Shown: positions 2,467 through 35,265 of the stretch, one piece after another
How positions within the stretch are numbered: position 1 is the stretch's first letter
Layout: every line of letters starts with the position of its first letter
Source: a virus
Reading direction: 5' to 3' (one strand)
Virus record (IMG/VR): IMGVR_UViG_3300021335_000004
Length of the DNA stretch: 64,000 nt
Program-made: the position numbers and the translations under genes
The notes under the pieces: model-generated
The model's input: the letters and a program-made list of their open reading frames with translations, nothing else
What the model was told of the DNA's origin: nothing
Database searches by the model: none

Positions 2467-4904
2467 TATTTTTCCTCAATTTTTGCTTTTAATTCTTTAA
2501 TAGCTTGAATGAGAAGAGGTACAACTCTACTATAATCAACAGCTAAATAACCATCTTCTCTAGTTTTTACTGCTTCTGGTAGTATTTCTTGAAGACTTTG
2601 TGCAATTACTCCCACATCGTGACCCTCTAAATGCTTGTAATTAAGGCCGGCCTCCCTTGCGTTCCAATCAAACTCAACTCCGGTAATAGAATCTACTTTA
2701 TCTAATGCGGAAACAATTGGGGTTATATTTTTCTTTAAACGAGAATCAGAAGTATTAAATGCTTCGACATCTCCACCTGCGTGAATAGCTCCTTCGACTC
2801 CTAAACCACCTGCTGTAATGATAAGAGCACCTGTATCTTTTGAAGTTGATGCGGTAGCATTTGTTACAGAAAGTGAGTCGGACTCGAGAGTAGTAAAGTT
2901 ACCTGTACCGGGTGTTGTAGCTCCTACATTAGTTCCATCAATAGCGCCTCCATCAATATTTACTGTATTTATAGTAACTGTTGTACCATTAAAGGTAAAG
3001 GTAGAGGCGTCTTGCAATTCTCCACTAGCACCAGCATAAATAACTCTGCCAGAAGTTAAATCAGCCACATTAGCAGAAGCTACTTTTAGCTGTGTTCCTT
3101 GTTTAAGATGAACATTACCAGAACCGTTAGGAGATAAAATTATATCACCATTAGTGTCAGTAGAACTTATAGTTCTTCCATTAAGTTGTAACTGATCAAC
3201 TAAAATATTAGTAGCAACTGAGTTCGTACCAATAGTGACGTCATCTATAGATCCACCATTAATATCAACAGACTGAGCGGTAAGAGTAGTACCATTAAAT
3301 GTCAAGTCTGCATCAGTAACTATTTGACCACTTGTTCCTGTGTATAAAACTCGATTTATAGTTTGTCCTGTTACATAAACATTTGGAGATATTAAATCTC
3401 TTTGAGGACGAACATCTCTTGCGTATACGTCTTGATAACCAGTAACTGTAAGAGAACCTGCTGTTGTACCGTCATCAGTAGTACTAAAAGCAGACCAACC
3501 ATCGTTTGCTTCATCCCAAACCCAAGCCATATTGTCCACAGAAGGACGGTACACTAATAGTCCAGCATCATAAGAAGCAGGAGCAGCCTGATTATTAGCA
3601 ACAACAATTAAAGGATCTTGTACTAAAAGGTTAGTAGCATCAGAAGTAAATGTTGAGCCTTGAACTACAAAATTACCTTCTACAAGCACATCTTGTTCAA
3701 AAGTTTTATCAACAGTAAACTTTTGAGAACCAGAATGGATAGCAGTTACATTATCTTGTACTGTATTAATATTAGAAGTTAAATCGGCGTGTAATCCCTG
3801 TACCGCTGTGTTAGTTGTTGTAGCAAAATAATGAAGGTTGCCTTGTACCAAATTAACATTACTAGAAATACTAGTATGAACAGAGCTAAATCTAGTATTA
3901 GAGTAAGCACCTAATGCATGAACATTTCCTTGAACAGTATCAATACGAGAATTAGAATAAGAACCTGTTATATGTAAATTACTTTGAACAGTATTTATGT
4001 CAGTATTAGCGCTATCAACCCCAAATATTAAAGAATTTATTGAAGTATTTGTAGTAGAGGCATAGTGATGTAAATTCGTTTGTACACGACCGGCGGCAAT
4101 ATCTTGTGTAAGAGTGGCACCGATAATAACTAGATTACCGTTAATTCTTAAATTACCGTTAATCTGCATCTGTGTATCAGGTACAATACCGCCTTCACCG
4201 ACAATTATTTGATCACCTATCTCATCGTTAGCGACATATCTAAATCCATTATCTCCAAAGGTTACTGATTCATATATTGATAAAGTATTGGCTCCTCTAA
4301 TAGCTCCATACATTGTAATATTTCTAATTTGATGATGAGTACCACCTACATCCATAAAACTTCTTAATACTAGATCACCACCAGCTACATCATTATCAAC
4401 TTCATAAATACCAAAATTACGACTAGGAAGAATGGAAGAATTAGCAGTCAATAACTCATTATATTTATAACCATCACTAAAAAATGCCTTACTATGAGCG
4501 TGATCTACTGCAAAGTATCCATTGTAAGTTATAGGAGAAGGAAATTTAACATTACTTTCATAAGCAGTTTTAAAAATAACTCTTGCAGTAGTAACAAAAG
4601 CATTACCATTTTCTGTTGTGAATGTTAGTCCTCCTGATTCAATAGAAGCATTGTTTAAGACAGCATTATCTATTACAGGAAATCCATTAATACGAGTACC
4701 TTGTGACATATGTAAATTAGAATTTACTACAGAAGGCGTGCCTGGGCTATCATTCAAGGTTAACCCTTGCATGGTTACAGTAGTAATATTAACATTATCT
4801 AAGGAAGTTTGTACTGTAGAATCACTAATACCTAAATTATCAATTGCTCCACTTATATTATTGGAGCCAGTACCGCCAAGGGAGACTGGGACTATAGTTG
4901 CCAT
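2466..4904 (-). CDS. Tail fibre protein with C-terminal intramolecular chaperone (peptidase S74)
   Basis: C-terminal SDSRLKKNI...GVIAQ...VDY...LIQAIKEL motif; TVQxNLH coiled-coil repeats; duplicated TFNGTT...GGxID segments. Confidence 0.85.
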   Translation of the reverse strand: MATIVPVSLGGTGSNNISGAIDNLGISDSTVQTSLDNVNITTVTMQGLTLNDSPGTPSVVNSNLHMSQGTRINGFPVIDNAVLNNASIESGGLTFTTENGNAFVTTARVIFKTAYESNVKFPSPITYNGYFAVDHAHSKAFFSDGYKYNELLTANSSILPSRNFGIYEVDNDVAGGDLVLRSFMDVGGTHHQIRNITMYGAIRGANTLSIYESVTFGDNGFRYVANDEIGDQIIVGEGGIVPDTQMQINGNLRINGNLVIIGATLTQDIAAGRVQTNLHHYASTTNTSINSLIFGVDSANTDINTVQSNLHITGSYSNSRIDTVQGNVHALGAYSNTRFSSVHTSISSNVNLVQGNLHYFATTTNTAVQGLHADLTSNINTVQDNVTAIHSGSQKFTVDKTFEQDVLVEGNFVVQGSTFTSDATNLLVQDPLIVVANNQAAPASYDAGLLVYRPSVDNMAWVWDEANDGWSAFSTTDDGTTAGSLTVTGYQDVYARDVRPQRDLISPNVYVTGQTINRVLYTGTSGQIVTDADLTFNGTTLTAQSVDINGGSIDDVTIGTNSVATNILVDQLQLNGRTISSTDTNGDIILSPNGSGNVHLKQGTQLKVASANVADLTSGRVIYAGASGELQDASTFTFNGTTVTINTVNIDGGAIDGTNVGATTPGTGNFTTLESDSLSVTNATASTSKDTGALIITAGGLGVEGAIHAGGDVEAFNTSDSRLKKNITPIVSALDKVDSITGVEFDWNAREAGLNYKHLEGHDVGVIAQSLQEILPEAVKTREDGYLAVDYSRVVPLLIQAIKELKAKIEEK

Positions 4905-6261: not shown

Positions 6262-6335
6262 TGGAGCGGCATAGGAGAATCGAACTCCTCTACATAGCTT
6301 GGAAGGCTAGTGCATTACCACTATGCTAATGCCGC
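6262..6335 (-). tRNA. tRNA-Gly(TCC)
   Basis: Cloverleaf GCGGCAT/ATGCCGC, anticodon loop CT-TCC-AA, GTTCGATTC T-loop, encoded CCA. Confidence 0.95.
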
Positions 6336-6337
6336 AT

Positions 6338-6414
6338 TGGTGACTTCGGAAGGATTCGAACCCTCGACCCACAGCTTAGAAGGCTGTTGCTCTATCCAGC
6401 TGAGCTACGAAGCC
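6338..6414 (-). tRNA. tRNA-Arg(TCT)
   Basis: GGCTTCG/CGAAGTC acceptor, ACAGC-CT-TCT-AA-GCTGT anticodon arm, GTTCGAATC T-loop, encoded CCA. Confidence 0.95.
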
Positions 6415-32764: not shown

Positions 32765-32940
32765 ATTATAAGTAATTTTTAAGCTTTTAGCAAATGCAAA
32801 AGCTGTTTTTTATGTTTGATTTAAGAAAAATATTGACAGATAATCAACATTTTTGTATACTAATTAAAATAATGAGTCAAAAATAATACTTAAAAACTCA
32901 TTAGATATATAATAACAAAAACTTATCATATAGGCAAGAA
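32765..32940. promoter_or_regulatory. Divergent promoter region
   Basis: + strand TTGACA(32833)-N17-TATACT(32856); - strand TTGCTA-N17-TATAAT near 32793-32765; coding strand switches here. Confidence 0.7.
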
Positions 32941-32945
32941 CGAAT

Positions 32946-33197
32946 ATGAATTATAAACTAGTTGGATTCTATAAAAATGAACATAATCGTACATACATTA
33001 GTGCATTATTTGATTTAATTAAAAAACGTCACCCCTCTATTACACAATCAGAAATATATGACTATCAGTCACAAAAAGCAATGGACTTAAGTATTAAACT
33101 TTTTCCTTGCGTACTGGTATTTAAAAATGATACTCTACATAAGAAGTTAGAGTCTAAACTAACATTAAAAGAATCATTACAAAAGTTGGGATTATAA
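32946..33197 (+). CDS. Thioredoxin-fold-like small protein lacking CxxC
   Basis: LSIKLFPCVLVFKND resembles the Trx cis-Pro region. Confidence 0.4.
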   Translation: MNYKLVGFYKNEHNRTYISALFDLIKKRHPSITQSEIYDYQSQKAMDLSIKLFPCVLVFKNDTLHKKLESKLTLKESLQKLGL

Positions 33198-33394
33198 TGT
33201 ACATAAAAGTAAGAAATAATGATGTAAGCAAAGCTTATAAAGCATTAAGTAGAAAACTTAATACTGAAGGTATTTTTAAAAAATTAAAAGAAAAACGATT
33301 TCATCAGACTAAAGGTGAAAAAAGAAGATTAAAACATAAAGAAGCTGTAGCAAGAATAAGAAGAATGGAACGTAAAAAAGAAGAAGAAAATTAA
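33197..33394 (+). CDS. rpsU: Ribosomal protein bS21
   Basis: VRNNDVSKA...L.RKL..EGIF..LK.KRF...KGEKRRLK..EA..R. Confidence 0.85.
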   Translation: MYIKVRNNDVSKAYKALSRKLNTEGIFKKLKEKRFHQTKGEKRRLKHKEAVARIRRMERKKEEEN

Positions 33395-33395
33395 T

Positions 33396-33716
33396 GTGAC
33401 AGATACTTTAAAAAGCAGTATACAAAAAGATTCTGAAGGATTTCATATACTGGTTGAAACAGAGGACATAAATTTTTCTGAATTTAAGAAAGCTAAAATA
33501 TTGTATTATATAGTAGAAATACACAGCATGAAATCAAGTGATATAGGAATCATGGCTGACGAAATAGATGGTGTTCAACACCCTATTAAATTTGATTCTT
33601 ATTCAAAAGCTAAAGTGTCTGCTTCTAAACTACAAGAACAATTAGGAGAAGAATCTCACTGGTTTACTAAGATTATTTCAAAAGAAAAAGATATTGTTTC
33701 GTCTGAGGAGCAGTAG
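33396..33716 (+). CDS. Hypothetical protein
   Basis: 106-aa ORF between bS21 and tmRNA. Confidence 0.5.
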   Translation: MTDTLKSSIQKDSEGFHILVETEDINFSEFKKAKILYYIVEIHSMKSSDIGIMADEIDGVQHPIKFDSYSKAKVSASKLQEQLGEESHWFTKIISKEKDIVSSEEQ

Positions 33717-34132
33717 AATAAACGGACTGGACGCGGGGGCAGTACCCGCCGCCTCCACCATAAGGACACTAAATGGAAATTATTTGGCATATACTATTAA
33801 CAGCTTGTATGAATTCTGAGTGTAGAACTCAAGATGTTCAGTGGTTTGATAATAAAAACACGTGTGAAGCAACAAAAAAACTTTACGAAGAGATTCCTCT
33901 AGATGGAAATTGGACAAGTGTTAAGTATATTTGTAAACCAAAAGGCTCAGTGTCTTTATGATGGGGGCGAAATAGGATCGACAGACGTAGTAAAAACTAA
34001 ACCGAGAAACAGGTGCGCAAGCGACCTTAACCGCAAGAAAACAACAATTGCAAATGATAATTTCGCAATCGAGGATTACCGCTTAGCGGCATAATCTCAC
34101 GGGGCGGCCACTGCCTAGCAACAGAAAGTGGC
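33695..34132 (+). ncRNA. ssrA: Permuted two-piece tmRNA: acceptor piece ends with CCA at 33760; coding piece 33963 to ~34132; tag ANDNFAIEDYRLAA at 34050-34094
   Basis: T arm GCGGG-GGCAGTA-CCCGC. CGCCTCC-A-CCA pairs with downstream GGGGGCG giving a G3:U70 pair. GAAATAGGATCGAC D-region and alphaproteobacterial-type tag. 5' end approximate. Confidence 0.92.
33773..33961 (+). CDS. 62-aa Cys-containing protein encoded inside the tmRNA intervening segment
   Basis: AAGGA RBS at 33762, ATG 33773, TGA 33961; four Cys; fills the intervening segment. Confidence 0.7.
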   Translation: MEIIWHILLTACMNSECRTQDVQWFDNKNTCEATKKLYEEIPLDGNWTSVKYICKPKGSVSL

Positions 34133-34151
34133 ATTTTTAAAGGAGGTACAA

Positions 34152-35228
34152 ATGGCGCCAAGAAATCATAAGTCCTGGTTAACAAAACCAAAAGTAGAAG
34201 CTATTAGTAGTGAAATTTATAATAGTTTTGATATTTACAAGCAAGAACAAGAAGATATTTTTTCAAAAGTTTGGGTTCCTGTTTGTCATATGTCAGAGAT
34301 GCCAAATGAAGGCAACTTCAGAACATCATCCATTGCTGGAGTTTCCATTATTGTTTATAATTTCAAGGATGAAGAAGTTAGAGCGTATAAGAACTATGAT
34401 ATTAAACAGGTATCTGGTACTTTTGCTGCTCCTATAGTAACTTCAGAACCTAGGTTACATTGTGAAGTAAAACATGGCGGTATGGTATGGGTAACACTAG
34501 ATCCTAATCCTACACAGAGTGTTGAAGAATGGACAGCAGGAGCTTTTGATTGTATTGCTGATGCTATTGACACAGAAGAAATGGAAGTATTCCATTATCA
34601 CAAAGCTGTGATTGATACAAACTATAAACTGTGGCATGATACTAACTCAGAGTTCTACCACGATTTTATGCATTATTTTAATAGAGTGTCAGGATTTAAT
34701 GATGAATATTTCGCTAGAAAGAATATTCCTTTTGATAATGGTCACGTTAATGTGTCTAGCTTTACTGTTAACTATGAAGAGTATGACGGATTTGAAGATC
34801 GCGGGGAACTATCTTTTCCCAATCTGCCGCCCAACCAGTGGTACATGGTCGATCTCTTCCCAGGATATAACTTCAACCTTCGTGGTTCCGCCTATCGTTC
34901 AGACTCAGTAACGCCTCTTGGACCTAATAAGGTGCTTATTGAATTTAGAGGATATGGATTAAAGAAAGATACACCAGAAGAAAGACAAACAAGAATCAAA
35001 CACCACAACTCTATTTGGGGACCCTTCGGTCGCAACCTACATGAAGACCTTATTGGTGTTGCTGGTCAAGGTACTACAATGAGAGAGGGTACCGAATCTA
35101 GGAACATTCTACACGGACGTCATGAAAACAGTACAATTCATGACGAAGTTGGCATGCGTCATTATTATGCAGAATGGAGCAAGTGGATGGGGTTAGATGC
35201 GAGTAGGCCATGTCAATTAGCGGCATAG
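34152..35228 (+). CDS. Rieske non-heme oxygenase alpha-subunit homolog lacking the Rieske cluster ligands
   Basis: AGGAGG RBS before ATG 34152; E.E.IFSKVWV, NYKLW..TNSEFYHDFMH, LFP, EDL; no CxH/CxxH ligand pair. Confidence 0.85.
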   Translation: MAPRNHKSWLTKPKVEAISSEIYNSFDIYKQEQEDIFSKVWVPVCHMSEMPNEGNFRTSSIAGVSIIVYNFKDEEVRAYKNYDIKQVSGTFAAPIVTSEPRLHCEVKHGGMVWVTLDPNPTQSVEEWTAGAFDCIADAIDTEEMEVFHYHKAVIDTNYKLWHDTNSEFYHDFMHYFNRVSGFNDEYFARKNIPFDNGHVNVSSFTVNYEEYDGFEDRGELSFPNLPPNQWYMVDLFPGYNFNLRGSAYRSDSVTPLGPNKVLIEFRGYGLKKDTPEERQTRIKHHNSIWGPFGRNLHEDLIGVAGQGTTMREGTESRNILHGRHENSTIHDEVGMRHYYAEWSKWMGLDASRPCQLAA

Positions 35229-35265
35229 TCTCACGGGGCGGGTACTGCCTAGCAACAGAAGTACC
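35217..35265 (+). repeat. Direct repeat of the tmRNA tag end and 3' pseudoknot (copy of 34083-34132)
   Basis: ttagcggcata[a/g]tctcacggggcgg[cc/gt]actgcctagcaacagaa[a/-]gt[gg/ac]c. Confidence 0.9.

Follow-up and report, generated by a model that had tools for sequence, protein, structure and literature searches.

A small-protein gene nested in the stem-closed intervening sequence of a phage permuted tmRNA

The intervening sequence (IVS) of a two-piece tmRNA is usually regarded as a disposable spacer. The stretch of viral DNA analyzed here (64,000 nucleotides, IMG/VR record IMGVR_UViG_3300021335_000004; hereafter the window) comes from an uncultured marine T4-like phage of the pelagimyophage/Melnitz-like kind, and it raises the question of what such a spacer does when nearly all of it is taken up by an open reading frame. 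A first-pass annotation had described a permuted tmRNA whose IVS carries a 62-codon ORF with its ribosome-binding site folded into a closing stem, and had proposed that the phage uses the excised spacer as an mRNA, with synthesis of the small protein perhaps coupled to tmRNA processing. Are the tmRNA, the nested gene and the stem each what they seem, and if so, how could one RNA be both translated and cut apart? We hold with high confidence that the anatomy is sound, meaning a real tmRNA, a real nested gene and a stem under selection. To the full statement, in which this anatomy is joined to an order of events where translation comes first, the stem then locks and processing follows, we give a probability of about 0.7.

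A two-piece tmRNA with an open reading frame between its halves

Two Rfam covariance models identify positions 33696-34135 of the plus strand as an alpha-type circularly permuted tmRNA. Both align over the full model length and score about twice their thresholds (RF04321, 105.1 bits against a gathering threshold of 47; RF01849, 104.1 bits against 50), bearing out the permuted tmRNA of the first-pass annotation. That annotation had named ARAGORN and the Rfam alpha-tmRNA model as checks; the Rfam models found the gene, and ARAGORN, which called permuted tmRNAs in several homologous loci, missed the one in the window. The permuted order is confirmed, with the T-arm, the 3′ acceptor strand and CCA lying upstream of the 5′ acceptor strand and the tag frame, and reading the sequence upheld the coordinates previously assigned to the CCA, G1, the IVS, the ORF and the stem (Table 1).

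Table 1. Features of the tmRNA locus and its surroundings in the window
Feature	Position	Strand	Remarks
Sigma-70-like promoter TTGACA-17-TATACT	32833-32861	+	11/12 match
Ribosomal protein S21 gene	33197-33394	+	Pfam PF01165, E 1.7e-13; PHROG 21469
orf106, family without a name	33396-33716	+	its final codons run into the start of the tmRNA acceptor piece (RF04321 start 33696)
tmRNA acceptor piece	33696-33760	+	T-arm, acceptor 3′ strand, discriminator A, CCA; Rfam alignments
Acceptor 3′ strand CGCCTCC	33750-33756	+	sequence reading
ACCA	33757-33760	+	discriminator A and CCA (CCA, 33758-33760)
Closing stem, 5′ arm CATAAGGACACT	33759-33770	+	contains SD AAGGA
Intervening sequence (IVS)	33761-33962	+	202 nt; insert between model positions in both Rfam alignments; not part of the mature tmRNA
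SD AAGGA	33762-33766	+	within the 5′ arm, 6 nt before ATG
62-codon cargo gene	33773-33961	+	small soluble protein (predicted), four invariant cysteines
Closing stem, 3′ arm AGTGTCTTTATG	33949-33960	+	overlaps the terminal S-V-S-L codons and the TG of TGA
tmRNA coding piece	33963-34135	+	G1 of GGGGGCG is 33963; Rfam and sequence reading
Tag frame ANDNFAIEDYRLAA	34050-34091	+	stop 34092-34094
tmRNA 3′ hairpin	34107-34132	+	U run directly after
MsmA-like Rieske/ring-hydroxylating oxygenase gene	34152-35228	+	between two tmRNA-tail copies; ends in QLAA and a stop

The tag frame resumes at GCA and ends in an (L/I)AA degron and a stop codon, giving ANDNFAIEDYRLAA as the tag in the window. An AN(D/A)N...(L/I)AA tag is kept in 13 of 14 homologues, and the usual motif is lost in the other (L003). 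The G3-U70 wobble, an alanine identity pair, is invariant in all 14 distinct homologues, while three acceptor pairs near it have undergone double-sided, compensatory changes among the same 14. The whole-precursor fold has a z-score of -3.55. By these sequence features, the phage encodes a functional-looking alpha-type two-piece tmRNA. One could suspect a decaying relic, at a locus whose only business is now the protein gene, from the atypical tag of L003 and from ARAGORN's failure in the window. The compensatory acceptor-stem changes, the nearly universal degradation tags and the Rfam scores make decay of the tmRNA extremely unlikely.

The layout of acceptor piece, IVS and coding piece is that of alphaproteobacterial two-piece tmRNAs (RF01849 and RF04321; Caulobacter type) and of Melnitz and pelagimyophage tmRNAs. 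The window has in common with alpha-type and Melnitz tmRNAs the G3-U70 pair, an ANDN...LAA tag and a stem-closed IVS that ends in UGAU before G1. Unlike the bacterial permuted tmRNAs, where the median IVS is 30 nt, its IVS measures 202 nt, holds a selected gene and has an SD inside the stem. The ORF fills 94% of this IVS; CCA is separated from ATG by 12 nt and TGA from G1 by 1 nt, so that the near-complete filling noted at first sight stands. Across homologous IVSs of 202-204 nt, the length of the longest ORF was reached by none of 300 interior shuffles.

A protein gene inside a tmRNA gene has a precedent in the group I introns that interrupt the T-loop of some tmRNAs, some of which carry LAGLIDADG homing endonuclease genes (PMC11915505). 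There, as predicted here, the gene is removed at the RNA level. The two systems differ in that the introns are self-splicing, sit in the T-loop and have homing endonucleases as cargo, whereas the cargo in the window lies between CCA and G1, is without a Pfam domain and would be removed by tRNA-processing enzymes. We therefore rejected a group I intron with a homing endonuclease as an account of the insert: the Rfam model Intron_gpI has no match at its gathering threshold in the window, the insert lies outside the T-loop, and Pfam recognizes no domain in the cargo. The 2025 tmRNA database, which holds only 79 phage tmRNAs, lists two oddities among IVSs, one a tRNA-Ala gene and one a repetitive element (PMC11915505). 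These cases likewise indicate that large inserts are tolerated, although their cargo is an RNA or a repeat and not a translated gene. The paper on phage Melnitz describes a phage two-piece tmRNA and a glutamine riboswitch, and no gene in the IVS (PMC9004378). Our literature search returned no account of protein genes in a tmRNA IVS; the founding papers on two-piece tmRNAs fall outside its coverage. Permuted tmRNAs themselves are known; what is new, on the sequence comparisons below, is the use of their IVS as a slot for a gene that is predicted to be translated.

Downstream, the tmRNA tail (LAA-stop plus 3′ hairpin) occurs twice, at 34083-34126 and 35217-35260, as a 44-nt direct repeat of 93% identity. 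The close relative L002 lacks the oxygenase and carries the tail only once. Taken together, the duplicated tail in the window and the single tail in the relative make the oxygenase gene look like an insertion into the tmRNA 3′ end with target duplication. Far from the tmRNA locus, genes for tRNA-Gly(TCC) and tRNA-Arg(TCT) lie 2 nt apart on the minus strand (6262-6414).

The 62-residue protein and the homes of its gene

Searching viral contigs with the peptide turned up homologues encoded at 56 viral loci, with 52-100% identity and every one of them exactly 62 codons long. An alignment of 39 distinct sequences (A2) has 25 invariant columns, four of them cysteines, and the protein of the window conforms to the invariant pattern throughout (M1-L9, C12, C17, Q20-D21, C31, P42, D44-G45, W47, Y52 and C54-K55-P56). 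The signature of this unnamed 62-aa phage protein family is MEIIWHILLT.C...CKP, and a profile search gathered 397 clusters at 90% identity, all unnamed and none with a Pfam domain. Copies inside tmRNA IVSs have dN/dS values of 0.05-0.43, with dS often saturated, and their third codon positions have roughly double the entropy of the first and second. Synonymous changes occur in the codons for the invariant N-terminus MEIIWHILL, which indicates that it is kept at the protein level. From the 39-sequence alignment, AlphaFold2 predicts a fold with a pLDDT of 90.6, composed of a beta-hairpin (residues 5-25), a helix (residues 28-39) and a strand (residues 49-56).

Judged by these patterns of substitution, the ORF is an independent small-protein gene under purifying selection, and the initial reading of it as a protein gene holds on all three counts of distribution, dN/dS and predicted fold. 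That it could instead be a chance or decaying frame is no more credible than a relic tmRNA, given dN/dS well below 1, an invariant length and a confident fold. Searches for relatives outside the family gave little: neither Pfam nor PHROGs has a significant match, Foldseek against the PDB has none at E<=0.001, the BFVD fold search gave weak matches only, to uncharacterised small phage proteins, the best hit in VIA-align wide had a Z of 5.8 with all matches of a generic alpha/beta kind, and the ESM Atlas yielded no relatives beyond the protein's own viral family. A signal peptide or lipoprotein motif (LTAC, residues 9-12) was considered and rejected, as AlphaFold2 puts residues 5-13 in a beta-strand of the compact fold.

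The gene is found in several genomic contexts. At 18 loci, the window and 17 others (L001-4, L007, L011, L014, L015, L017, L019-22, L025, L028, L031 and L045), it lies inside the IVS of an alpha-type permuted tmRNA, always with CCA, TAAGGA... and ATG on the 5′ side and TGA-T-GGGG on the 3′ side. Elsewhere it sits between tRNA-Thr (or tRNA-Ala) and tRNA-Leu, for example in L010, L013, L016, L033, L036, L037 and L054-56. In a third setting, it adjoins a tmRNA from outside, upstream in L018 and Melnitz and downstream in L008 and L009; in Melnitz, a cultured OM43 phage, the 52%-identical homologue is gene 85, directly upstream of the tmRNA, gene 86. Finally, some copies are free-standing, with no RNA gene nearby. 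On the protein tree, IVS copies fall on both sides of the deepest well-supported split, and the well-supported branches of this tree, which has only 62 alignment columns, force at least two context changes.

Among the tRNA-flanked copies, the stop codon often has a base in common with tRNA-Leu. In L010, L016, L033 and L037, the ORF spans 3001-3189 and tRNA-Leu runs from 3189, so that the G of the TAG stop codon is position 1 of the tRNA; both ARAGORN and Rfam place the tRNA-Leu start at this shared G. Because of it, RNase P cleavage would truncate the stop codon, leaving UA as the last bases of the spacer RNA. Loss of the stop from the spacer argues that the precursor serves as the mRNA, at least for those copies. 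This arrangement recalls tRNA-linked mRNAs, such as those of the mitochondrial tRNA punctuation model and bacterial co-transcripts like the E. coli thrU-tufB operon. There too, a coding region borders directly on tRNA-like structures and has its ends set by their processing sites, and the copies between tRNA-Thr and tRNA-Leu extend the parallel to a stop codon that touches tRNA position 1. The tmRNA copies depart from it in that their flanks are one RNA reassembling around the gene, with the ends of the coding region base-paired together.

Is the window exceptional among permuted tmRNAs? Our survey searched with a single tmRNA motif, GGGGNNGAAATAGGATCGAC, and assigned to each match its acceptor strand further upstream; this pattern of motif and acceptor strand is strict, and the viral contigs may include host fragments. 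Among 107 distinct IVSs from bacterial genomes, the median length is 30 nt and the longest is 83 nt, with none reaching 100 or 150 nt. Viral contigs gave 106 distinct IVSs, whose median length is 85 nt and whose longest member measures about 294 nt, with 43 of at least 100 nt and 19 of at least 150 nt; one further viral IVS of 499 nt has uncertain pairing. The IVS of the window had been called unusually long, and at 202 nt it indeed lies beyond every bacterial example. For 15 of 42 viral IVSs of 100-320 nt, the longest ORF has p<=0.05 against interior shuffles, a level that most viral IVSs of at least 150 nt reach. The survey of length and ORF content proposed in the first-pass annotation thus yields longer IVSs in viral contigs, many of them with small ORFs.

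The ORFs come from several unrelated families, namely the 62-aa family, a WSICAD membrane-peptide family, a basic 55-aa protein, 37-45-aa hydrophobic peptides and 63-77-aa proteins, and many end in TGA 1 nt before G1. We conclude that phage permuted tmRNAs repeatedly accommodate small genes in their IVS. The WSICAD family is found in five loci (L094, L125, L141, L152 and L160), and a 37-39-aa hydrophobic peptide, MDREIWIIYL..., occupies the IVS of L106 and of L018 (about 2992-3125). Melnitz itself (L057, MZ577097; 2781-2963) has a 142-nt IVS in which GGAG is followed by an ATG at 2800. The candidate frame runs for 54 codons through G1 into the mature coding piece, with its stop at 2963, and has an MFK... 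start and a PKYL.G motif in common with the IVS peptide of L140.

The closing stem and the buried ribosome-binding site

The two arms, CATAAGGACACT and AGTGTCTTTATG, form 12 base pairs, one of them G-U. Through a further pair, between A73 (A33757) and U33962, the helix continues the 7-bp acceptor stem across a single C-A mismatch. Both the MFE and centroid folds, of the isolated IVS and of the whole precursor alike, contain the stem, so that reading and folding agree with the earlier description of a 12-bp helix prolonging the acceptor stem. In an alignment of 14 distinct ORF-bearing precursors (A1), pairing at the 13 stem pairs reaches 98.3%, whereas for slid controls the figure is 35-49%. 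One pair takes three forms in a compensatory way, C-G in the window, U-G in L003, L017, L025 and L045, and U-A in L011 and L019; further compensatory changes turn C-G into U-A in L031 and U-A into G-C in L007. This covariation rests on few independent events, three within IVS copies. A covariation check on the stem had been suggested, and its outcome is conservation with compensatory change.

Burial of the ribosome-binding site, the remaining structural claim, also holds up in prediction. AAGGA is part of the 5′ arm. Folding gives the SD a probability of about 0.0-0.03 of being unpaired in 8 of 9 IVS copies, compared with 0.40-0.49 where the same gene lies elsewhere. We considered whether pairing of the ends might be a general property of the cassette, as a 9-bp pairing between the SD and codons 59-61 occurs in the homologous place in L010, L037 and L054. 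The SD of Thr/Leu-flanked copies is, however, no more occluded than that of free-standing ones (0.49 against 0.40 unpaired), and the general claim was dropped.

The stem as such is not peculiar to ORF-bearing IVSs. The same CAUAA...UUAUGAU/GGGG stem closes phage IVSs that have no ORF (L008, 29 nt; L005, 66 nt), at least eight end-to-end pairs are present in 85 of 103 viral IVSs as opposed to 2 of 103 after shuffling, and TGAT before G1 is the commonest IVS end in viral and bacterial genes alike. The IVS of the window is thus the ordinary stem-closed hairpin of permuted tmRNA genes, its loop expanded by a 62-codon cargo gene. What sets the ORF-bearing IVSs apart is the 5′ arm, which reads TAAGGAC or AAAGGAG where ORF-less IVSs have TAAACAC, with pairing kept through a G-U. 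On this comparison of sequences, their hallmark is an SD built into the 5′ arm, not the stem itself. The 3′ arm, for its part, is coding: the protein always ends in [VM]SL in IVS copies and in TST, RGT, EPA or other tails elsewhere. As this ending is fixed only where the 3′ arm is coding, stem and protein appear to constrain each other. Nonetheless, tmRNA maturation may be the stem's only role, and the SD may be masked simply as a consequence of tight packing.

The gene might simply be a passenger in a permissive, well-transcribed site, where the stem only joins the tmRNA halves and any effects on translation are incidental. The identical stem of ORF-less IVSs speaks for this, as do the many other contexts of the gene with several changes of context on the protein tree, and the use of the slot by many unrelated ORFs. 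A mere passenger, on the other hand, would hardly account for a 5′ arm that has been remodelled to hold an SD while its pairing is kept by a G-U partner (TAAACAC against TAAGGAC), nor for [VM]SL codons that are fixed only in IVS copies, where gene and stem constrain each other. We regard the passenger account as rather unlikely. It overlaps, without excluding it, the account that we favor, of translation followed by locking and processing, and it overlaps also the account in which the excised IVS is the messenger.

In that last account, which was the one first proposed, the message would be the 202-nt excised IVS, translated after excision and guarded against exonucleases by its paired ends. 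The ORF and SD fit the excised piece exactly, with the stop codon intact and 1 nt to spare; an end-to-end stem is predicted in the isolated IVS; and several unrelated IVS ORFs also end in TGA 1 nt before G1. But the exact fit may be inherited, since TGAT before G1 is commonest in ORF-less and bacterial IVSs as well. Initiation would also be poor, as the probability that the SD is unpaired is about 0 in the excised RNA: after cuts at CCA/U and U/G1, both arms remain on the excised piece, and processing therefore does not unmask the SD. The excised spacer of the copies between tRNA-Thr and tRNA-Leu, moreover, would be without a stop codon. On this evidence, translation from the excised piece is an improbable explanation.

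One transcript as probable messenger and precursor

The sigma-70-like promoter upstream of the locus is, from its sequence, the likely start of a transcript that passes through orf83, the S21 gene and orf106 into the tmRNA. No plus-strand terminator was called between this promoter and the tmRNA, and the ORF contains neither a terminator nor a conserved promoter. The S21 gene, second upstream of the tmRNA, shares its strand and follows the same promoter-like site; the two form a small translation-related module.

Could the coding piece instead have its own promoter within the ORF, so that the two pieces are separate transcripts? Promoter-like matches do occur inside or across the ORF, at 33904-33931 in the window (9/12) and at 2994-3023 in L019 (10/12). 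Over the window, however, such matches are about as frequent as chance would have it (16 found, 12.2 expected), and they are not conserved across homologues. The acceptor piece is not followed by a terminator, only 1 nt separates the stop codon from G1, and the arms covary as a single helix that runs on into the acceptor stem, all of which renders separate transcription very unlikely. The match in L019 reads TTGAAA-18-TATACT (10/12) and lies across the 5′ arm and the first ORF codons, as does its counterpart in L045 (2995-3023); its -35 element is absent in the window and its -10 element varies synonymously.

In the explanation we favor, a single transcript would contain the gene and both tmRNA halves, and would act first as messenger and next as tmRNA precursor. 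The SD would emerge some 190 nt ahead of its pairing partner, a distance that would allow ribosomes to load during transcription, or while the 3′ arm is unwound by translation of the last codons. Closure of the stem would then mask the SD and stop translation, the extended acceptor helix would form, and RNase P (at U33962/G33963) together with 3′ processing (after A33760) would release the two pieces. That one transcript serves as both messenger and stable-RNA precursor appears to be the case; the particular order of translating first, then locking and processing, is a model that we put forward tentatively, at somewhat less than even odds.

A bolder extension would make the stem-closed IVS a timing and feedback device. 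Each transcript would give a short burst of protein before the SD is locked and the tmRNA matures, and a ribosome translating an excised IVS would stop 1 nt from the 3′ end with an empty mRNA channel, a substrate for the tmRNA made from the same transcript. Output of the cargo would then be set by tmRNA processing and trans-translation, and phage tmRNA and tRNA spacers would make up one exchangeable slot system. We offer this extension as speculation, with the odds well against it.

A selected gene in the IVS, together with the gap in IVS size between viral and bacterial genes, would mean that phages use a stable-RNA precursor as a messenger, and that an order must be kept between translation and RNase P processing on a single molecule. 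The layout offers a compact natural system in which to study how ribosomes and RNA-processing enzymes compete, and the housing of the same small gene in tmRNA spacers and in tRNA-array spacers links the two. Gene callers that mask tmRNAs will overlook a class of small phage proteins.
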